A stretch of DNA of 64,000 bases, taken from NCBI RefSeq assembly GCF_963921235.1, contig NC_086097.1:70930001-70994000 (forward strand), given 5' to 3'. The notes beneath the pieces are model-generated. The model searched no databases. It worked only from the letters and a program-made list of their open reading frames with translations, and had not been told where the DNA came from. This DNA is from Mobula hypostoma (taxonomy: Eukaryota). Positions 1 to 28,330 of this stretch are shown here, piece by piece. Made by a program: the position numbers and the translations under genes. The number at the start of each line of letters is the position of its first letter. Position 1 is the first letter of the stretch.

Positions 1-179
1 ATAAATCAAAAGAAAAAAATAAAATAGTACCAAATACATTACATTAAAAATACAGTTACAATCACAAAACCCTGTATTCATAAAAAATTAGATTAAATTG
101 TAATACTGAAATATAATAATTTTGTTATATAGAAAAAAAATCTAAACCCACTACCAAAGTCAGAGCTGTAACCGTAACC

Positions 180-985
180 TTTGACACTCTGACTAATCAA
201 GGGTCTTTCAACCTCTGTTTTAAATGTACTCTATGGCTTGGCCTCCATAACCTTCTGTGACAATGAATTCCATAGATTTACTACCCTTTGGCTAAAGAAA
301 TTCCTTCTCATCTCTGTTCTAAATGAGGCTGTCCTCTGACACCCCACTATAGGGGTGTAGTCCATCTGATCCAAGTGACTTATCTATTTTCAGACCTCTT
401 AGCTTCCCAAGCACCTTCTCCTGAGTAAGTGACAACACTCACTTCTGCTCCTGACACTCTTGAATTTCTGGCATATGTCAGTGTCTTCTATAGTAAAGTC
501 TGACACAAAGTACTTAATAAGTTCATCCGCTATTTCTTTGCCCCCCTCCCGTGATATTACCTCTCCAGTGTCATTTTCCAGTGATTCAATAGCCACTCTC
601 GCTTATCTTTTACTCTTTATATATTTGAAAAACTTTTGGTATCCTCTTTAATATTATTAGCAAAACTTCATATTTCATCTTTTCTCTCTTTATAGCTTTT
701 TTAGTTGCCTTCTGTTGGTTTTTAAATGCTTCAGAATTCTCTAACTTCCCACTAATTTTTGCTATATTACGTGCCCTCTCCTTTGCTTATATGCTTACAT
801 TGACTTCAACCACAGTTGCCTCATCCTCCCTTCTTCACCTTTGGAATATATCAATCATTTGCCTTCCAATTGCCCCCAGCCATTGTTTCGTGATCTGTTA
901 GCCCTGCTTGTGTCCTCTTCCAATCAACTTTGGTGAGCTCCACTCTCATGCCTCTGTATTTCCCTTTACTCCGCTATAATACTAA
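180..985 (-). mobile_element. CR1-like LINE fragment (left part, interrupted by the Penelope insertion)
   Basis: Decayed ORF2-like text on the minus strand (ORF 399..596, KEIADELIKYFVSDFTIEDT). The sequence resumes after the TSD at 4581-4596. Confidence 0.7.
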
Positions 986-1062
986 TACATTTGACTCTAT
1001 CAACATACATCAAAGTTGCTGGTGAACGCAGCAGGCCAGGCAGCATCTCTAGGAAGAGGTGC

Positions 1063-1098
1063 AGTCGACGTTTCAGGCCGAGACCCTTCGTCAGGACT
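1063..1098 (-). ncRNA. Minimal type I hammerhead ribozyme motif (Penelope terminus, left arm)
   Basis: Reverse complement reads AGTC-CTGACGA-AGGGTCTCGGCCT-GAAAC-GTC-GACT: CUGANGA and GAAA cores, GUC cleavage triplet, AGTC/GACT helix I. Confidence 0.8.
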
Positions 1099-2232
1099 AA
1101 CTGAAGGAAGAGTGAGTAAGGGATTTGAAAGCTGGAGGGGGAGGGGGAGATGCAAAATGATAGGAGAAGACAGGAGGGGGAGGGATAGAGCCGAGAGCTG
1201 GACAGGTGATAGGCAAAAGGGGATACGAGAGGATCATGGGACAGGAGGCCCGGGAAGAAAGACAAGGAGGGGAGGGGGGGACCCAGAGGATGGGCAAGAG
1301 GTATATTCAGAGGGACAGAGGGAGAAAAAGGAGAGTGAGAGAAAGAATGTGTGCATAAAAATGAGTAACAGATGGGGTACGAGGGGAAGGTGGGGCCTTA
1401 GCGGAAGTTGGAGAAGTCGATGTTCATGCCATCAGGTTGGAGGCTACCCAGACGGAATATAAGGTGTTGTTCCTCCAACCTGAGTGTGGCTTCATCTTTA
1501 CAGTAGAGGAGGCCGTGGATAGACATGTCAGAATGGGAATGGGATGTGGAATTAAAATGTGTGGCCACTGGGAGATCCTGCTTTCTCTGGTGGACAGAGC
1601 GCAGATGTTCGGCAAAGCAGTCTCCCAGTCTGCGTCGGGTCTCGCCAATATATAAGAGGTCACATCGGGAGCACCGGACGCAGTATATCACCCCAGTAGA
1701 CTCACAGGTGAAGTGTTGCCTCACCTGGAAGGTCTGTTTGATGCCCTGAATGGTGGTAAGGGAGGAAGTGTAAGGGCATGTGTAGCACTTGTTCCACTTA
1801 CAAGGATAAGTGCCAGGAGGGAGATCGGTGGGGAGGGATGGGGGGGACGAATGGGCAAGGGAGTTGCGTAGGGAGCGATCCCTGCGGAATGCAGGGGGGG
1901 GGGAGAAAAGATGTGCTTAGTTGTGGGATCCCGTTGGAGGTGACGGAAGTTACGGAGAATAATATGTTGGACCCGGAGGCTGGTGGGGTGGTAGGTGAGG
2001 ACCAAGGGAACCCTATTCCTAGTGGGGTGGCGGGAGGATGGAGTGAGAGCAGATGTACGTGAAATGGGGGAGATGCGTTTAAGAGCAGAGTTGATAGTGG
2101 AGGAAGGGAAGCCCCTTTCTTTAAAAAAGGAAGACATCTCCCTCGTCCTAGAATGAAAAGCCTCATCCTGAGAGCAGATGCGGCGGAGACGGAGGAATTG
2201 CGAGAAGGGGATGGCGTTTTTGCAAGAGACAG

Positions 2233-2382
2233 GGTGAGAAGAGGAATAGTCCAGATAGCTGTGAGAGTCAGTAGGCTTATAGTAGGTGAGAAGAGGAATA
2301 GTCCAGATAGCTGTGAGAGTCAGTAGGCTTATAGTAGGTGAGAAGAGGAATAGTCCAGATAGCTGTGAGAGTCAGTAGGCTT
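2233..2382 (-). repeat. 52-bp tandem repeat, about 3 copies, within the Penelope left arm
   Basis: Reverse complement of CTATAAGCCTACTGACTCTCACAGCTATCTGGACTATTCCTCTTCTCACCTA, repeated. Confidence 0.95.
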
Positions 2383-3117
2383 TTGCCCACACCTCAGCGA
2401 GTTCCGTGTTCGCCATGATGCGGAACTTTTCTTCCGCCGTCTCCGTCTCTGAGCCTACTTCTTCGGCAAGGACTCTTCGAGGTATGCAGAAACGAGTTTG
2501 GTGGGGCAGGAGCAAGCTGAGACAATAGGTCGGCCAGGACAGGCAGGTTTGTGGATCTTGGGTAGGAGGTAGAAACGGGAAGTGCGGGGTGTGGGAACTA
2601 TAAGGTTGGTAGCAGTGGATGGGAGATCCCCTGAGCGGATAAAGTCGGTGATGGTGTGGGAGACAATGGCCTGGAGCTCCTTAGTGGGGTCATTCACGAT
2701 CGAGGGGTAAATAAGAGGAGGTATCCGCGAGTGTCGCTGTGCCTCGGCAAGGTAAAGGTCAGTACGCCAGACTACAACAGCACCCCCCTTATCGGTGGGT
2801 TTAATAATAAGGTTAGGATTAGTGCGGAGGGAGTGGAGTGGAGAACAGAGCGTTCCGAAGGAGTGAGGTTGGAATGGGGACAAGGTGCGGTGAAGTCGAG
2901 ACGGTTGATGTCCCGTCGGCAATTAGCGATAAAGAGATCCAGAGCAGGCAGAAGACCAGAGCGGGGTGTCCATGAAGAAGAGGAGGGTTGAAGACGGCAG
3001 AAGGGGTCATCGGTGGGGGTGGAAGAGTCCTTGCCGAAGAAGTAGTCTCGGAGACGGAGACGGCGGAAGAAAAGTTCCACATCATGGCGAACACGGAACT
3101 CACTGAGATGTGGACGA

Positions 3118-3320
3118 AAGCCTACTGACTCTCACAGCTATCTGGACTATTCCTCTTCTCACCTACTATAAGCCTACTGACTCTCACAGCTATCTGGACT
3201 ATTCCTCTTCTCACCTACTATAAGCCTACTGACTCTCACAGCTATCTGGACTATTCCTCTTCTCACCTTACTATAAGCCTACTGACTCTCACAGCTATCT
3301 GGACTATTCCTCTTCTCACC
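3118..3320 (+). repeat. 52-bp tandem repeat, about 4 copies, within the Penelope right arm
   Basis: Same unit, with AAGCCT recurring at 3118, 3170 and so on. It encodes YKPTDSHSYLDYSSSH. Confidence 0.95.
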
Positions 3321-4447
3321 CTGTCTCTTGCAAAAACACCATCCCCTTCTCACAATTCCTCCATCTCCGCCGCATCTGCTCTCAGGATGAGGCTTTTCAT
3401 TCTAGGACGAGGGATATGTCTTCCTTTTTTAAAGAAAGGGGCTTCCCTTCCTCCACTATCAACTCTGCTCTTAAACGCATCTCCCCCATTTCACGTACAT
3501 CTGCTCTCACTCCATCCTCCCGCCACCCCACTAGGAATAGGGTTCCCCTGGTCCTCACCTACCACCCCACCAGCCTCTGGGTCCAACATATTATTCTCCG
3601 TAACTTCCACCACCTCCAACGGGATCCCACCACTAAGCACATCTTTCCCTCCCCCCCCTGCATTCCGCAGGGATCGCTCCCTACGCAACTGCCTTGTCCG
3701 TTCGTCCCCCCCATCCCTCCCCACTGATCTCCCTCCTGGCACTTATCTGTGTAAGCGGAACAAGTGCACACATGCCCTTACACTTCCTCCCTTACCACCA
3801 TTCAGGGCCCCAAACAGTCCTTCCAGGTGAGGCGACACTTCACCTGTGAGTCTACTGGGGTGATATACTGCGTCCGGTGCTCCCGATGTGACCTTTTATA
3901 TATTGGCGAGACCCGACGCAGACTGGGAGACCGCTTTGCCGAACATCTATGCTCTGTCCGCCAGAGAAAGCAGGATCTCCCAGTGGCCACACATTTTAAT
4001 TCCACATCCCATTCCCATTCTGACATGTCTATCCACGGCCTCCTCTACTGTAAAGATGAAGCCACACTCAGGTTGGAGGAACAACACCTTATATTCCGTC
4101 TGGGTAGCCTCCAACCTGATGACATGAACATCGACTTCTCCAACTTCCGCTAAGGTCCCACCTCCCCCTCGTACCCCATCTGTTACTTATTTTTATGCAC
4201 ACATTCTTTCTCTCACTCTCCTTTTTCTCCCACTGTCCCTCTGAATATACCTCTTGCCCATCCTCTGGGTCCCCCCGCCCTTGTCTTTCTTCCCGGACCT
4301 CCTGTCCCATGATCCTCTCGTATCCCTTTTTGCCTATCACCTGTCCAGCTCTTGGCTCTATCCCTCCCCCTCCTATCTTCTCTTATCATTTTGGATCTCC
4401 CCCTCCCCCTCCAACTTTCAAACTCCTTACTCACTCTTCTTTCAGGT

Positions 4448-4483
4448 AGTCCTGACGAAGGGTCTCGGCCTGAAACGTCGACT
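4448..4483 (+). ncRNA. Minimal type I hammerhead ribozyme motif (Penelope terminus, right arm)
   Basis: AGTC (4448-4451), CTGACGA (4452-4458), short helix II, GAAAC, GTC (4477-4479), GACT (4480-4483). Confidence 0.8.
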
Positions 4484-4596
4484 GCACCTCTTCCTACAGA
4501 TGCTGCCTGGCCTGCTGCGTTCACCAGCAACTTTGATGTGTGTTGCTTGAATTTCCAGCATCTGCAGAATTCCTGTTGTTTACATTTGACTCTATC

Positions 4597-5249
4597 TTAT
4601 CCCGCTCAAATTGTAGGGTGAATTCTATCATATTATGGTCACTGTCTCCTAGGCTTCCTGATTAAATCTGGTTCACACACAACGCCCAATCCAGAACTTC
4701 CTTCCCACAGTTAGTTCAACCACAAGCTGCTTTAAAAAGCCATCTCGTAGGCATTCTAGAAATTCTCTCTCTTGGGATCCAGCACCAACCTTAATTTTTC
4801 AACTTACCTGTATATTGAAATCCCCGATTGCTATCATAACATTTCCCTTTTCACATACATTTTCTATCTCCCATTGTAATTTATATCCCACATCTTGGCT
4901 ACTATTTGAGGCCTGTATATAACTCCCATCAGCATCTTTTTAACCTTGCAGTTTCTTAACTCTACCCATAAGAACTCTGCATCTTTTGATCGTATGTCAC
5001 TTCTTTCTAAGGACTTGATTTCATTTTTTAGCAACAGAGCCACCCCGCCCCCTCTATTTATCTGTCTGTCCTTTCTATACAAGATGTCTCCCTGTATGTT
5101 AAACTCCCAACTATGGTCTTCTTTCAGCCATGGCACAGTGATGCCCACACGTCATATCTGCCAGTCTCTAATTGCGCTACAAGATCATCTACCTTATTCC
5201 GTATACTGCATGCTTTTAAATATAACATATTCAGACCTGTATTCATCAC
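4597..5249 (-). mobile_element. CR1-like LINE fragment, APE endonuclease region
   Basis: ORF 4864..5148 (-): GITVPWLKEDHSWEFNIQG...YRKDRQ..RGGGVALL...LWVELRNCK...GVIYRP, typical of the CR1 APE domain. Confidence 0.85.
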
Positions 5250-5563
5250 TGTGTGGGCACGTGGCCAAGTGGTTAAGGCATTTGACTAGCGATCTGAAGG
5301 TAGTGAGTTCAAGCCCCAGCCGAGGCAGCGTGTTGTGTCCTTGAGCAAGGCACTTAATCACACATTGCTCTGCGACGACACTGGTGCCAAGCTGTATGGG
5401 TTCTAATGCCCTTCCCTTGGACAACATCAGCGTCGTGGAGAGGGGAGACTTGCAGCATGGGCAACTGCCTGTCTTCCATACAACCTTGCCCATGCCTGCG
5501 CCCTGGAGAATGAAGACTTTCCGGGCACAGATCCATGGTCTCGCAAGACTAACGGATGCCTTT
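5250..5563 (+). mobile_element. tRNA-derived SINE
   Basis: Pol III A box TGGCCAAGTGG and B box GAGTTCAAGCC at the 5' end, then a non-tRNA body. 10-bp TSD TATTCATCAC at 5240-5249 and 5564-5573. Confidence 0.85.
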
Positions 5564-8234
5564 TATTCATCACCCATTTTGATTTCCCCCCATATTACAC
5601 TTCAACTCACTGGCAGTGATTTTGCCTGTGCTTCCTCACAGTCTCACTACACACTGCATCTACTTGCATACCGACTGCCCCGCCCTCTGACCTATGATTT
5701 CATTTTCCATCCCCCCAACAAATTATGTTATGGAGTGCTAAGCTCTAGGTGCAGGCCAATGGACTAGGCAGGACAACAGTTTGGCATGGACTAAATGGGC
5801 TGGGCAGAAGTGCCTGCTTCTGTGCCGTAGGCCATGACCCTAAATTTGAATGAGTAGTATTTAAAAGAGAAGAAGTGCATTTTACAGGCAATTCACTTCT
5901 TGAAAATTCATCCTACCTCCAAACAATAACTCTTGCTGCTCACCTTGCAGAAATGACCAGCAGAAAACAATGAATATGTTGTAACGAGGAAATATTCTCC
6001 AAATCCTTTATCAAGATGATTTTCTCAACATTGTGTTTATTGTTCCATGTCTCCCAGCCACCAACCCTGGCCATATATTTGTTTGCTTTACGTTTAGATT
6101 GTCACCTTTGGAATGAGGAACAATAAAATGGTTCATTGTGGTTTTCCATAATATAAGAATATAAAAGTCCTTATTGTATAAGGATTTAGACTGCCTAGCC
6201 TATCTGAAATTGAATCGTTCTTTATTACAGCAGTACCAACTTTAAAATATCTTGATAAAATCGATGCCTACAGCAATGTTTGATGGGGTTTTTATGTACA
6301 ATTACACATTCATTCGTGCTGGTGCAAATTTCTTCAATAGACTAGCATTCTCTGATAATGAGATAAACGCACATATAGAAAGAACCAGAGGAGCATGTTG
6401 AATATGAAATCAAATCAAATAGCAAGCAATCATTAGTCATAAGTGAGATAAGTGAACATCAGCTGACTGCCAATAAGGAACAGATAAATAACTGCTAATT
6501 TTATAACAAAATATTCAGGGATCATGATAAGAGACTATAAAAATTTGAATAAAGTAGACATGCTACTGAAATAAGAGCCCCTTTAGTCCTTCATTTCACA
6601 TACATTGTTGTGTTGTGTGAGCAGTGGTTTGTGTACAAATAATAGGCCACTGTTGAATTGAGTACATTATTAATTACATTTTGTGTTGGCTCTCATCTGG
6701 CAGACCTTGGCAAATATAAAGGTCATTTAGAATTTAGTTTGTAATATTCATGTGGAGAAACAATTTTTGGACATGTTACTGAGTGCGTGTCTGGTCGTAT
6801 CAGTGAAGCCAAACTCGTACCATTCTAAAAGATAAGAACCTGCAGGCTAATAGAATGTTTTTATTTGTCGAAGTCTTAGTACAGCTTTCTCTACAAACAC
6901 AACTGCAATCCCTTCCGGTATAGTCAGATTTCTGATAGAGAGAAATATGGAATTAGATTAGTTTATTTGTCAATCTGCCTTCAAACAAAATCTTCAAAAA
7001 TAATTTCATTGTTAATGGAGAAATTTGTTCTATGAGGGAACATTGTGCATTGTGTATTGTTTCTGGAGAGAGAGTGAACGCTGCATATATGTATGAAAAT
7101 AATGTGGTTCTATCATATTAACGCCAGTGTGGTTTGATAAATCAGTGACCATTCAAAGAAGGCATGATAATCCAAGTTGAATGGAGAACACTCGCCAATT
7201 ATTGTTCTGTGGAGCATTTTCTGTTCTAACAATGATTAACTGAACAGCAATACTCTGAGTATTAATTATTTGTGAAAACAAACACGAGCACTGATGCTAC
7301 TTCAATTCCCTTAATTGTTTATATTTTTAATCGTATATTCGACCACTTGTAAGATTTTACTTGGTGTCACATGCTATTTACATGCACAATTTTTTTCTGG
7401 ATCAGCATGTACGCTAAAGTATGTAATTTGTCAAAATTGGGTTCTGATCATAGAAAATGTTTTCTTCGAGTTTTTGATTGGATGGGATCTGCTTTTTGTT
7501 TCCTCTGAACGATAAATAATAAGAGTGTATAATCATTGGCATAATCACTTCTGAATTTTTATTGAATTTCTCAGTCATGGTAATCATTACCCAGATAGCC
7601 TGGACTATTTATAAAGTTAGTGACATCTTGCACCATTTCCCAGCTCCTTCCCCCCACAACCCTAATCCTAAAATGAAAATTTGATAAGCTAACATGCAAA
7701 ACAAACATTTTAAGATAATTAGTCTTATTTGTTGTGTGTCACATCCAGCCATCTCGATTTTAAATAAGGCTCCTTTTGTTTTGCACACTCCCATCAGATA
7801 AATTGTTGTATTGCTTAGGGTGATGTTCCAGCACAACCTGAAACAGCTAAATATTGTCCAATGCAGCCAAGAGTAATTTGCAAGTTGAATGTGGCCAGCA
7901 GGTTCAGAAGATGCAGATGTATACTTTTCAGGCTATCAATCAAGATACACCTCACTTAGTAACTTTCTTGCAAAATATTCCAATTATACCAGACAACTGA
8001 CATGTCAATTACTTTGTAAAAATAATAATAGTGAATTTTAAACCATGATGGCTTCAATTCATTCAGTAGTTATTGTCAGATTAGAAATTTACATCCTTAG
8101 TTTGTCAACATCTTGCGGACCTGTTCTGATTTTTTTAATGTCTTTCTTCTTTCTTTGTGTATTTCCTGAGGTATGTATAAATAAACATTTGAAGCACATA
8201 TGTAATAGTAACAACAACAACAATAATAATAATA

Positions 8235-14289: not shown

Positions 14290-14616
14290 TAGTATGCATA
14301 TACTATTGCCTTAAACAGTGAAAACTGCAGTTTCTCTGGAAGCATTATTTGGATTAAATTATATTCTGAGTTTAAATTTTCTCAGTGATGTTTTGGCTCA
14401 ATAAATGAAATCAAGTCGTACAAAACTTATTCAGTAAAGATAACAAAATCTCTATTACATATATTTTATGTTACATTGAGGATATATGTTAATGTTATTT
14501 AAAATTCTCCTGCATGAACATTAGACTAATGTAGCTCTTTGCCACTCTTAATCAACTTAAATGGTGGTATGATTTCAGATATTAATGAATATCCAAGAGG
14601 CATTTGCCTAATTTGA

Positions 14617-14943
14617 GAAAATCTGCAGATGTTGGGAATCCAAGCGACACACACAAAATGCTGGAGAAACTCAGCAGGCCAGGCAGCATCTATGGAAAAG
14701 AGTACAGCTGAAGTTTTGGGCGGAGACCCTTCTTTGAGACTCAGTGTAAAGTTTCTTCCAGGGATGCCTACCATGAAGAACTTTAAATCTTCCCTCTGAT
14801 GAGAGTTCAGTGAAACCCTCTCTCACTGCTCCCACTCTGATCTCTGCTGAGTCCTGATGAAGGGTCTTGGTCCAAAACATTGACTGTATTCTTTTCCATA
14901 GATGTTGCCTGACCTGCTGAGTTCCTCAAGCATTTTGTGTGTG
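14617..14943. mobile_element. Short palindromic Penelope-terminus derivative
   Basis: Inverted arms (ACACACACAAAATGCTGGAGAAACTCAGCAGG.. / ..CCTGCTGAGTTCCTCAAGCATTTTGTGTGTGT) homologous to 4450-4580. Degenerate hammerhead at 14850-14885. TSD TTGCCT(A/G)ATTTGA at 14604-14616 and 14944-14956. Confidence 0.8.
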
Positions 14944-14991
14944 TTGCCTGATTTGAATTTGGTTTTTACAAAACCAACTACTTCAGAAAGT

Positions 14992-15153
14992 AGCACACAC
15001 AAATGCTGGTTGAACTCAGCAAGTCAGACAGCATCTATGGAAATGAATAAAATAAATGAATAGTTCCTTTGATGCTACCTAACCTGCTGAGTTCCCCCAG
15101 CATTTTGTGTGCATTGCTTTGGATTTCCAGCATCCGCAGACTTTCTCGTGTTT
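14992..15153. mobile_element. Very short palindromic Penelope-terminus derivative
   Basis: Inverted arms as above. Perfect 15-bp TSD ACTACTTCAGAAAGT at 14977-14991 and 15154-15168. Confidence 0.85.
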
Positions 15154-17539
15154 ACTACTTCAGAAAGTGGTATCAAAAAGTTAGCCTCGGGAAAAGGCAG
15201 ATGTTCCAAATTATCCATGACTTCTTTGATTTTCTTTTTCCCTAAAATTCACCCAGTTTGAATATCTGGAAGTATACCATGGGAATTTTTACCCGTTTGA
15301 AGTGATTAATCCAAAACTAAACCAAGAGTTGAAAAGTACACTAATATTGCTAACTTATAGAATTTCATTCCTTAGAAGTGTATTTTGATGTTTTGAGAGC
15401 CTAATGCAAACTCTACTTTCTCACACCATTAAGAAGATTCTGAATTCTTTAAACCAGGCTTCACACTGCATTGACGTCAAGCTCTCCATTGTGCCAAGCT
15501 CAAGTACTTAGATATGATTTCCCAAATGGGTCTCATCACTTCTATTTAATGCACTGAAGTTAGATCAGAACTGTTGCCTTACTTGAAGCAATACATATTT
15601 GAAATACTTTTTTGTTGAGTGGAAGGTGGAGGTATAACTGTAGCCACATTCTGTACTCTCAGCTGCAGAGAACAAAAATTCCAACATATTCATAAATGCC
15701 AAATACTGCTGTGATAAGAAGTTCTATCGTATAAAACTGAAGACAAATGGAACAAAAAGGAATCATGTTGTTGAGCTGTTGAGCCATGAAGCAGGGAATA
15801 CTATATCATAATGTTAATTTGAAATGAGGCGCTCAGAGACAGTGTTGATGAACCAATTTCTTTTTACGATTATCTCTGTTGACAATAAATTGTGATATCC
15901 TACATTATTAACTAACTCACATGTTTCCCAGAGAACCAGCAGAAGTAATTGGCAGCAAATTTGCATTGAAACTGAGGCCTGACTTGGGGAAAAAAACAGC
16001 TTGCTCCTATCTTAACTGTTGTCCTGTGGGACTTGGTGAAAATAGTCAAGGATTTCATAATGTTCAAAGGATAACATAATAACCTTGCTAATTTGGTGAA
16101 GATCACAAGGGGACTGATAAACAAAATTACTGTAGTGATCTAGTCCTAGCTATCTTTAGTTGTCTAATCATACATTTGTTAAAAGGTTAGGAATGGGAAT
16201 ATTTTCTGATGATTGCACAACACTGAATTCCATTCAGAATTCCATTCAGAATTCCTCTGATAATGAAGCAATCCATGCCTATATGCACCAAGATAATTAA
16301 AGCATCTGGGCTTGAGACAATGAATGATAGGTAACATTGATTCGTCACACAACTCAAAAACTTCAATGGCATTGTAATTAGCAAATCCCAAAGTCACCAA
16401 CGTGCAGAAATGTAACCTGCATAAACATACATTAGATGCAGGTCTGAGGCAGTGGACTGTATATTAGGTGCCTCAACTACTGACTCCTCTAAAATCTCCA
16501 AACCACTTGCAAAATATAAATCAACACACTTGCCTGTATGGATACATCTGAAACAGTCCTCCAGAAAGTCACTGCCATCGAAGACCAATCAATCTAAATG
16601 ACTGGCACCTCATTTGCCAGCATAAATATTGAATTCCCTAACTAGTAGTCTACTACCATTGGACTGAATGTCATCATTGAGGTATAAGAAAGTGATCAAG
16701 GTTTTTACTCCAGCAATTCTGAAATGTGTGACTTCTACTAGCTAAAATGTCTGGTGAAAATACAGGGTAAACCATACAGATTTAATATAGCTAAAAAACA
16801 TCAAAATTTAGGTTTGGTTATGCAGAATTGGTGAGAAAGTTCAGTTTCATCAGCTGACGCCCTTGGACATTCCTTTCTTAAGGTATGAATAGCATAGACT
16901 GACAAAATGAATAAATTAGAGATGGCATCTAAAATCCCATGTGTTGACATAGGCTTAGATTTTATAGGAGATTTCTTTCAATCCTCTGACTTGGGGCACA
17001 CTAATAAAACATGTGGATATCAGATCATGTTTGGAGTAGAATTCCCAGTCAAATTAACTTTGAATAGGTTGGATATTATATGTACAAAAATCTTAGGAAC
17101 AAATTTATTGAAAATAGGATTAGTTATTAAATGTGTTGCATAACTGTGTTGACCACTTTTAGGCATACTTTCTTATAAATATGCTTCGGTGTAACCTAAG
17201 TGTCTAGCTAGTAATCATGATATTAAAATTACAATAGCAATCATGCGTTTTGAACATTTTAACATGGAGTAAAGTGCATTTTGAAATATGTGGCAATGTA
17301 TCACCAAACAAAGGCGGCTGTGGGCTGAAGGGCTTGTACTGTGAGGTACTGTTCCAAAATGAGAAGCAGTTACATAAGAACACAACCAGCTTGAGGCTTC
17401 TTTCCAAGTCACAAATCATTGGACATTTGTCAATACATTCAACTTTGCAGAATTACTTTCGTAAGAACTGTAAATACAGAATATGCAACACTCTATTGGA
17501 ATACTCTGAGGTAAATATTTTATTTATCTTCCGCGTTAG

Positions 17540-18744: not shown

Positions 18745-18862
18745 AACAAACTGCAGATGCTGGAGTTCTGAAGTAAAAACAGAAATACGCAGCATGTTAG
18801 GCCACTTCAGTGGGAAGAGGAACAGAGCTAATGATTCAGGTAGAAGACTCTTCGTCAGAAAT
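18745..18862 (-). mobile_element. Old Penelope-terminus fragment
   Basis: CTGCAGATGCTGG start and TTCGTCAG (reverse complement of CTGACGAA) end, the same layout as the other termini. Confidence 0.6.
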
Positions 18863-26619: not shown

Positions 26620-28330
26620 CATACACTTTTGAATCCACTATGAAAATGCATAGTTTATTTTCAATTCTGGAACAACCAACGCATAACTGACCATGGGAAA
26701 CACACTGTGATTCATGATTAAGGGCAACAACTTTTGGTGATTGCCCTTGTTAATGTTCATATGTCAAACTAAGTGAACCAGGGATCTGAAATCCCTTCCA
26801 TTGAAAAGGTAGATCAGATGGGTTAGCTGGTATCTGAGATGTGAAATATTTTATCAACAGCATTACTATTCATTAATGTCACCTTAATTACGTGTGATGG
26901 TAATTTTTCAACTGATAATTCTATGCTCCTGTATAGTATTGGCAGATCCAATTTCCTGCAGAGCATGATCAGAGATCCTTCTTTTAGTTCAAGATTATAT
27001 GATGGCACATGAGGTTGTGACAGACAGTCTAAAAATTAAACATGAGAAATTCTGCAGGTGCTGGAAATCCAAAGCAACACATACAAAATACTGGAGGAAT
27101 TCAGCAAGTCAGGCAGCATCTATGGAAATGAATAAACAGTCAACGTTTCGGGCCAAGACCCTTCCTTGGGACTAGAAAGGACGAGGGAAGACACTAGAAT
27201 AAAAAGTGGGGGAAGGGAAGGAGGCTGACTAGGAGGTGATAGACGAAGCCGGGTGAGTAGGAAAGATAAAGGGCTAGAGAAGAAGGAATCTGTTGGGAAG
27301 GAGAGTAGACCATAGGAGAAAGAGGAGGGGACCAGGAGGAGGTGAGAAGAGGTAAGAGGCCAGAGTGGGGAAGAAGAGGGGAGGGAAAGGAAATATTTTT
27401 ACTGGAAGGAGAAATTGTACAGGTCGTCTGAAAAACATTGAAAGGAGGTCTTTACTTTGTGGCCTGTGCTGCATCTTTTGTTTTTTTTGGTGCAGAAATT
27501 GCTCTTTTATGCAACCTTTGGTAATTCAAATAGTGTTGAATAACATTTGGAAAAAATGCTGGCATCAGAATGTGAAGTGATGTAACAATTTGGCCAAAAT
27601 TATTCATCTACTCATTCTGTTGAGTATTCATGTTTATTTCCCCATTTCCAAATTAGGGCAAATTGAAGCAAAATCCTTTGCAAATAGATTCCTGTCAAAT
27701 ACACTGGCATACTGGTTCTTCCAACTGTAATCATTTAAAATTTTCCCAAATATAGAATGCTTTAATGCAGGTTCTAGTATCTCATGCATTTACTGGTAGT
27801 GTTTAACAAAATTCTTCAGCTAACACTAAAGTACCAGCTCCCATTAATTTATTACTGTGTCTAGGTTTTTGCAACATTCATTCTGACGTTTCAGTGGCTG
27901 CTTTCTGAGCCATTCTATTCCATCCATCCCAGACAATGAGTTTATAACCTTTAGAAGTTTTTTTTCAGTGCAGTTCAGTTCCCTGGCCAATGTTGTATGT
28001 TGGAATCTGCATATTGACCTCATTTAAAAGGAGTTTAAAAGCATAGTATGCAGTTTCCCCCCACATTAACAACACTGAAGCAATGCCTAATGATGTCAAG
28101 ACCATAAGACACAGGAGCAGAATTAGGCCATTTGGCCCATCGAGTCTGCTTCTCAGTCAAGGCCACGCCAATCATCTTTTATCTTAAAACTCTAGCCAAA
28201 CGTAAATGAACAAGGGATGCCCCCATTTCACCAGAAGCAACAAAAGAATATTATTTGTTGCTCATTTTAATTAGTCTATGTAATAGTATGTAAGGCATTT
28301 CTTTGGTATCTCACAAAGCTTAGTTCTTTC
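26620..28330 (-). mobile_element. Fossil Helitron RepHel PIF1-family helicase, split by two later insertions
   Basis: Minus-strand remnants in the correct order: VASGEMG (Walker A-like), SLGIASVLL.WGETAYYAFKL, KLIVWDG (Walker B), MGAGTLVLAEEFC*TLPV, CIKAFYIW, KRAISAPK, PSYNLELKEGSLIML, PSDLPFQWK.FQIP, SHGQLCVGCSRI. Confidence 0.85.
27038..27417 (-). mobile_element. Penelope-like 3' end fragment inserted in the Helitron
   Basis: Terminus homologous to 4450-4580, with a degenerate hammerhead (AACGTTTCGGGCCAAGACCCTTC on +) and a purine-rich 3' UTR complement. Confidence 0.78.

Follow-up and report, generated by a model that had tools for sequence, protein, structure and literature searches.

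A Penelope-like insertion in Mobula hypostoma with one inversion junction in both of its arms

A 3.6-kb insertion of a Penelope-like element (PLE) occupies positions 986 to 4,596 of a 64,000-nucleotide stretch of the Mobula hypostoma genome (contig NC_086097.1, 70,930,001 to 70,994,000), called the window below. Two inverted arms enclose a spacer. PLE insertions often have an inverted, 5'-truncated copy adjoining the 5' end and a tail of 30-40 bp at one end, as the text of PMC8557442 describes; PMC3846280 and PMC2377424 give further examples of the inverted layout. A preliminary description of this DNA, made from the sequence alone, rightly called inverted termini a known trait of these elements, and the locus fits the published pattern: it has an inverted 5'-truncated copy, a one-sided tail of 35 bp and a 16-bp target-site duplication (TSD). 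Nothing about the outer layout is out of the ordinary; the unusual feature is the presence, in both arms, of the inner inversion junction and of the stutter of repeats beside it. The insertion is genuine, stems from a single event and is dead; it represents a nested form of a pattern already known.

Structure of the insertion

The features are given here in window coordinates, with strand.

986-1001, no strand: left TSD copy, 16 bp, exact, found twice in the window only
1002-2382, minus: 3' part in the left arm (thumb, CX4CxxC linker, GIY-YIG, 3' untranslated region (UTR)/pseudo-long terminal repeat (pLTR)), ending at a tail-less boundary
1063-1098, minus: minimal type I hammerhead-like motif of the left arm, a manual motif match
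1398-1916, minus: linker and GIY-YIG reading frame of the left arm (Pfam GIY-YIG E=0.033, below the curated cut-off)
2233-2382, minus: three head-to-tail units of a 52-bp thumb-start repeat, left arm (tandem-repeat family D2)
2383-2478, plus: 96-bp piece of the N-terminal open reading frame (ORF), left arm, an inverted copy of 3022-3117, with the inner junction at 2382/2383
2477-2479, no strand: outer head-to-head joint, own to the present insertion, with 2-nt microhomology
2479-3021, minus: single-copy spacer, N-terminal ORF region with a DKG motif and three small indels, stopping just before reverse transcriptase (RT) motif A
3022-3117, minus: 96-bp N-terminal ORF piece, right arm, with the inner, older inversion junction at 3117/3118
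3118-3320, plus: 52-bp repeat of the right arm in four units, the first of 46 nt, with one additional T (family D1)
3118-4153, plus: thumb, linker and GIY-YIG of the right arm, frameshifted (tblastn; Pfam GIY-YIG E=2.7e-05, above the cut-off)
4448-4483, plus: minimal type I hammerhead-like motif of the right arm, a manual motif match, absent from the minimum-free-energy fold of the monomer
4546-4580, plus: 35-bp tail, right arm only, at the family 3' end
4581-4596, no strand: right TSD copy, 16 bp, exact, found twice in the window only
4597-5238, minus: host long interspersed nuclear element (LINE), AP-endonuclease region, probably CR1-like by its motifs; it resumes at 1001 and below

The single TSD claimed around the whole 3.6 kb holds: the 16-mer is exact and has two occurrences in the window, both strands counted. 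At each end one base (C1001 and T4581) can be assigned to the element or to the TSD alike. When 1002-4596 is taken out, a single minus-strand host frame crosses the site (..DHNMIEFTLQFERDKIESNV|LVL..), in keeping with the read-through reported earlier. The exact TSD, the in-frame host and the junction common to both arms support one insertion event.

Self-BLAST aligns 1001-2478 with 3022-4545 in inverted orientation at 92.6% including gaps, which confirms 1002-2478 and 3022-4545 as inverted copies around a spacer of 543 bp (2479-3021). The alignment holds 54 substitutions in 1,471 columns and four gaps (53, 1, 1 and 5 nt). Could the palindrome be a fold-back made by the assembly, as the preliminary description had considered, or two unrelated insertions lying side by side? 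The contigs are short and no aligned record spans the locus. But the arms of an assembly fold-back would be identical, and these differ in their substitutions and gaps, in their repeat counts (3 versus 4) and in the one-sided tail. Independent copies would not have a junction in common, and neither idea agrees with one exact TSD and a host frame that reads through. We consider this explanation barely credible.

Along the plus strand the TSD is followed by the antisense 3' part (1002-2382), the sense 96-bp N-terminal piece (2383-2478), the antisense N-terminal piece (2479-3117), the sense 3' part (3118-4580) and the second TSD. The inner junction of the right arm (3117/3118) recurs in the left arm at 2382/2383, as the preliminary description had noted, with the same repeat boundaries. 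A 3-nt microhomology at the inner junction was considered and rejected, at most about 2 nt being possible; a hairpin at either joint was rejected by folding (z about 0). The preliminary description did not mention the 52-bp junction repeats, the one-sided tail, the hammerhead motifs or the absence of the first ~100-200 ORF codons.

Contigs of the family from 4 of the 23 sequencing runs were aligned to the locus (99,000-342,000 family contigs per run). What follows on them draws on 15 of 3,560 joints, 24 of 9,480 loose ends and 40 of 281 variant rows; X5 and X6 are the same sample, and summed contig depth is no measure of copy number. Loose ends mark native continuations at 2285, 3163 and 2477. 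At 2477 the native continuation of the ORF (28 records in X5) encodes the residues that follow in P0001, which gives the 2-nt microhomology at the outer joint. Behind 4581 they are abundant (231 records in X1, 186 in X5), marking the family 3' end.

Coding content, family and host repeat

Translated comparison (tblastn, 8 of the 120 listed relatives) places 3117->2479 on the minus strand as an N-terminal ORF piece, about amino acids (aa) 101-310 of relative P0004, and 3118->4153 on the plus strand as thumb, linker and GIY-YIG, starting at aa 509 of the same protein. This agrees with the earlier account of the right unit as an inverted N-terminal piece joined to the forward thumb, GIY-YIG and terminus, with the RT core missing. 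The relatives connect the same N and C pieces via an RT: among 143 proteins, in the 7 retained by a motif filter, the stretch missing here is always 198 aa long and carries RT motifs (B and C in 7 of 7, A in 6 of 7). The RT core of P0001 has no significant match in the locus or the 64-kb window. The first ~100-200 codons of the ORF are likewise absent. The DKG motif upstream of the RT is present in the spacer frame as KPTDKGG. Among named relatives of the spacer protein, the nearest comes from Mobula hypostoma, at 79% over the frameshifted query and 96% in the thumb. The present copy is a defective derivative that encodes nothing functional; the earlier view of it as non-autonomous, with no coding capacity of its own, stands.

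To which PLE group does the element belong? According to the text of PMC8557442, a CX2-5CxxC motif between RT and endonuclease marks Neptune/Nematis and is absent in Penelope/Poseidon. The left arm has such a linker, CKWNKCYTC, of the form CX4CxxC, as do five of the seven filtered relatives (the remaining two stop short of it). The element therefore appears to be of Neptune/Nematis type, not Penelope/Poseidon, an assignment made on the linker motif rather than on an RT tree. Its GIY-YIG domain (Pfam PF01541) has two cysteines between the equivalents of GIY and YIG; the CCHH motif of GIY-YIG in endonuclease-bearing PLEs is defined in the text of PMC8557442. The candidate hammerheads have the core boxes, a 4-bp helix I and a palindromic helix III when aligned by hand, with no Rfam match; the minimal hammerhead is described in the text of PMC4209133.

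The stop-free stretch of the host upstream of the insertion matches Atlas clusters (score 0.95) in which Exo_endo_phos occurs in 21% of the members. Searched against Pfam and PDB, the frameshifted frames of the host gave nothing significant: Pfam found no family in nine window frames, and a PDB search with one host frame gave a single match of E=0.13, which we disregarded. The name CR1 for the host repeat is provisional and follows from its motifs. Near ~350 (minus strand) the translation of the host LINE appears to jump from just past the endonuclease/tether region to the C-terminal end, and the host LINE presumably has no RT domain of its own, to judge from its motifs. An insert of ~315 bp at the upstream end of the host LINE (5240-5573) has a 10-bp direct repeat at 5240 and 5564. 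Its start looks tRNA-derived (SINE-like); ARAGORN found no tRNA gene in 1-8000, this insert included. On the other side of the insertion, ~106 bp of host LINE flank (833-940) are missing from contigs of organism B. The locus is a decayed repeat within another decayed repeat, with no sign of function.

Origin of the two arms

How did one junction come to lie in both arms? Besides the junction and the repeat boundaries, the arms have two rare alleles in common (3891/1660 and 3940/1611), where ~99% of family contig depth reads otherwise. It follows that the arms come from one template species or that one was copied from the other, which upholds the proposal that both descend from one junction-bearing sequence. 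The arms differ by 3.7%; changes affect 16% of the CpG columns and 2.6% of the remainder. In the coding part there are 6 synonymous and 20 non-synonymous differences, where 30% synonymous would be expected. The arms decayed neutrally from near-identical copies. An origin from two selected master templates was rejected, there being no synonymous excess. A frameshift at a poly-C tract, common to both arms, was likewise not accepted as showing that the template had decayed; an in-frame master 3 nt shorter with independent slippage accounts for it equally well.

The age of the duplication can be read from the inner 96-bp piece. Its arm-to-arm differences (7/96, of which 3 non-CpG) exceed the 54/1,471 of the arms overall. 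The piece is as old as the rest, so the duplication dates to the insertion or soon after. This bears on late conversion at the DNA level, in which the inner right arm would have been copied over the left long after insertion. Such an event would agree with the repeat block, where 0 of 150 columns differ between the arms. But that block contains no CpG, and repeat arrays would in any case homogenise readily, while the 96-bp piece is the very sequence that conversion must have made and is more diverged than the average of the arms. We regard late conversion as very improbable.

We favour, with a probability of about one half, a second-generation head-to-head insertion of a Neptune/Nematis-type PLE. 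An earlier copy elsewhere would have had an inverted joint, with antisense N-terminal ORF against a sense copy truncated at the thumb, and the 52-nt re-copying stutter would have sat at this joint. RNA that crossed this parent copy and finished at the 3' terminus of the element would have been bound in trans by the enzyme of an intact copy. At the AT-rich site in the old LINE, the geometry is that of strands nicked 16 bp apart; by the mechanism known from in vitro work on a related element, the 3' end at each nick would have primed a complementary DNA (cDNA), one from the tailed site at 4580 and the other from the tail-less site at 4545. The junctions have both cDNAs crossing the inherited joint into the antisense N-terminal piece and stopping after 2,102 and 1,477 nt, where they may have been united through the 2-nt microhomology at 2477-2478. 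A stop of the longer cDNA just short of the RT core would explain why that core is absent: given a parent that was already a head-to-head copy, the core would have been lost by 5' truncation, not by deletion.

This account is the simplest and draws on nothing but the ordinary behaviour of the family, twice over. In its favour, the left arm ends 35 nt short of the family 3' end; in vitro, such a tail-less boundary is tied to a second RT start (text of PMC11167929), which makes priming at both nicks at least as good a fit as copying back. The common junction, repeat boundaries and rare alleles, the age of the 96-bp piece, the neutral differences between the arms, and the agreement of the outer layout with the published pattern and with the two mini-insertions described below speak for it as well. 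The preliminary description had proposed that a rearranged template was mobilised in trans and then copied back on itself. The first part is our preferred reading; the second is not established, and the internal deletion implied by that description is not needed.

Several observations weigh against the second-generation account. Differences outside CpG are denser in the outer 3' UTR (17/372) than in the coding part (16/763; Fisher p=0.024), and at 1152/4394 the arms hold different alleles of an apparent family polymorphism; together these could mean another template for the outer left arm. Identity between the arms is clumped, the three longest runs together giving P=0.004 (the longest alone P=0.09). 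Some arm-to-arm conversion has probably taken place, and it could also yield the common rare alleles, for which parallel mutation alone, at generous rates, gives P=0.04. If the parent was fully head-to-head, its transcript would fold into a long hairpin and be a poor template. No parent locus or second copy of the junction appears among the 15 of 3,560 joints listed, which are uninformative for 3117/3118 and for the empty site; the rows listed include neither a joint of the empty site nor a contig across the junction. Pattern scans of viral and metagenome contigs, collections with no trace of the family, gave 0 matches in 3 of 3 cases. Lastly, the raised depth of one antisense-to-sense joint of the family, 2618->3542 (below), is absent from X6 among the joints listed.

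A template switch at the locus itself accommodates part of this evidence and is a serious possibility, to which we give somewhat less credence. The insertion would have started as an ordinary head-to-head one, with the RT core in a long left arm. In the course of fill-in, or shortly afterwards, the strand extending from the right would have turned back on itself at the 2-nt microhomology and copied its junction and repeats a second time before pairing with the left arm again, replacing ~594 bp of RT core with no need for a second locus. The geometry is the same and the tail-less left end is kept. A mosaic left arm is predicted, which fits the denser UTR differences, the discordant alleles at 1152/4394 and the clumped identity, and self-priming has been proposed for PLEs in the text of PMC3846280. 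Yet two extra switches are needed, one of them with no more than 2 nt of homology to rely on; the copy must extend at least 820 bp beyond the junction to reach the common rare allele at 3940; and folding finds no hairpin at the joint that would favour the switch.

A further alternative, put forward in the preliminary description, is an amplified non-autonomous deletion/inversion subfamily that lacks the RT core and whose cDNA folded back on itself here. It would account for the junction common to both arms; interior rearrangement joints above single depth do exist among the joints listed (2539/3424 in X5 and X6, for example), and the text of PMC8557442 reports non-autonomous PLE derivatives in Chlamydomonas. 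However, depth in X1 is lowest inside the element at the junction bins (~92,000-115,000 versus 0.5-6.6 million in the other wholly internal bins), which disfavours an abundant subfamily though not a rare one. The N-terminal piece, moreover, ends at the present insertion's own joint, and no fixed deletion breakpoint is visible. We think this version improbable.

The contigs also show how the family behaves in general. Short head-to-head copies exist: at least 37 X1 contigs join left-arm 1096/1097 to right-arm 4448-4452, and among the joints listed the head-to-head ones cluster there, immediately 5' to the hammerhead-like motif. The list also has several go-back joints, spanning 30-105 nt, which suggests that members of the family often re-copy short stretches. 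Other antisense-to-sense joints, such as 2618->3542, reach ~2 times (X1) and 4-8 times (X5) the depth of a single listed contig, a weak hint that such joints get recopied. The 52-nt stutter itself may reflect telomerase-like repeated copying of a short template stretch.

Known systems, neighbouring insertions and significance

The closest parallels are Penelope of Drosophila virilis (PMC2377424, Fig. 1C) and the general PLE scheme (PMC8557442, Fig. 2). As described there, and as here, an inverted 5'-truncated copy adjoins the 5' end with flanking inverted repeats, a tail of 30-40 bp stands on one side, and partial tandem repeats are present; the hammerhead motif of their terminus has a candidate counterpart in each arm here. 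Unlike in those cases, both arms of the locus hold an identical internal inversion junction with its repeat stutter, and the middle is antisense N-terminal ORF, not a direct tandem copy.

In Adineta vaga, the text of PMC3846280 describes a Pen2a insertion with inverted pLTR, a 31-bp tail and a 9-bp TSD, a Pen2 derivative with an internal deletion and inverted pLTRs, Pen3 copies whose 5' and 3' halves are inverted, and cargo mobilised in trans. TSD-bounded inverted structures, defective derivatives, opposed N and C halves and trans mobilisation are thus common ground. Judged by that text (figures aside), the locus differs in having a prior junction duplicated in both arms and no palindrome at its joint.

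For PAc, a Poseidon element of Anolis carolinensis, the text of PMC11167929 reports both strands cleaved and extended in vitro, with the tail lying between two RT start sites; the AT-rich target is a further likeness, and the hammerhead near the PAc terminus has a candidate counterpart here. PAc belongs to another clade, however, and that in vitro work did not reconstitute the joining of the two cDNAs. Twin priming of L1, as the text of PMC11702581 describes it, likewise gives an antisense 5' piece and a sense 3' piece from opposed cDNAs, with short microhomology and a TSD of 12-18 bp. The right unit of the locus looks like this pattern. But in L1 the TSD borders immediately on the inverted piece, with inner breakpoints usually 1-10 bp from each other, whereas here a full second arm of 1,477 bp keeps the two apart and 594 nt separate the breakpoints. 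A twin-primed 5' inversion of L1 type was rejected on these grounds. In the text of open-access articles, figures, supplements and subscription papers aside (for example, Arkhipova 2006; Evgen'ev and Arkhipova 2005), we found no description of a junction common to both arms; the available text of PMC7229834 and PMC12910113 likewise has nothing on arm-shared junctions.

The window holds other insertions of this kind. Two mini head-to-head insertions of a related PLE family each have a tailed and a tail-less arm, one at 14977-15168 with an exact 15-bp TSD and one at 14605-14956 with a 12-bp TSD bearing one mismatch. The same outer layout is therefore seen in 2 of 2 other two-armed mini-insertions examined in the window. 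More 5'-truncated and more diverged PLE termini lie at 27022-27392 and 18787-18858 (minus). Farther along, at ~40400-63200, there is a 23-kb minisatellite with a 45-bp period, higher-order periods of ~494 and 6,338 bp and very long stop-free frames.

The origin of tandem and inverted PLE insertions is still open, in the words of the text of PMC8557442 and PMC11167929, and the main use of the locus is as a test case for how two arms arise. Two arms with a private junction constrain the mechanism: either one template species served for both, or one arm came from the other. A parent locus, found or excluded, would tell apart two mechanisms, renewed copying of an already rearranged element and fold-back at the insertion site. 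We tentatively suggest, as a possibility rather than an expectation, that head-to-head PLE insertions are re-mobilised recursively, that the junction with its 52-nt stutter is a barcode of one rare template used for both arms, and that a parent with an antisense RT core lies elsewhere. If this is true, recursive lineages would let two-nick and self-priming models be tested from genome data alone.

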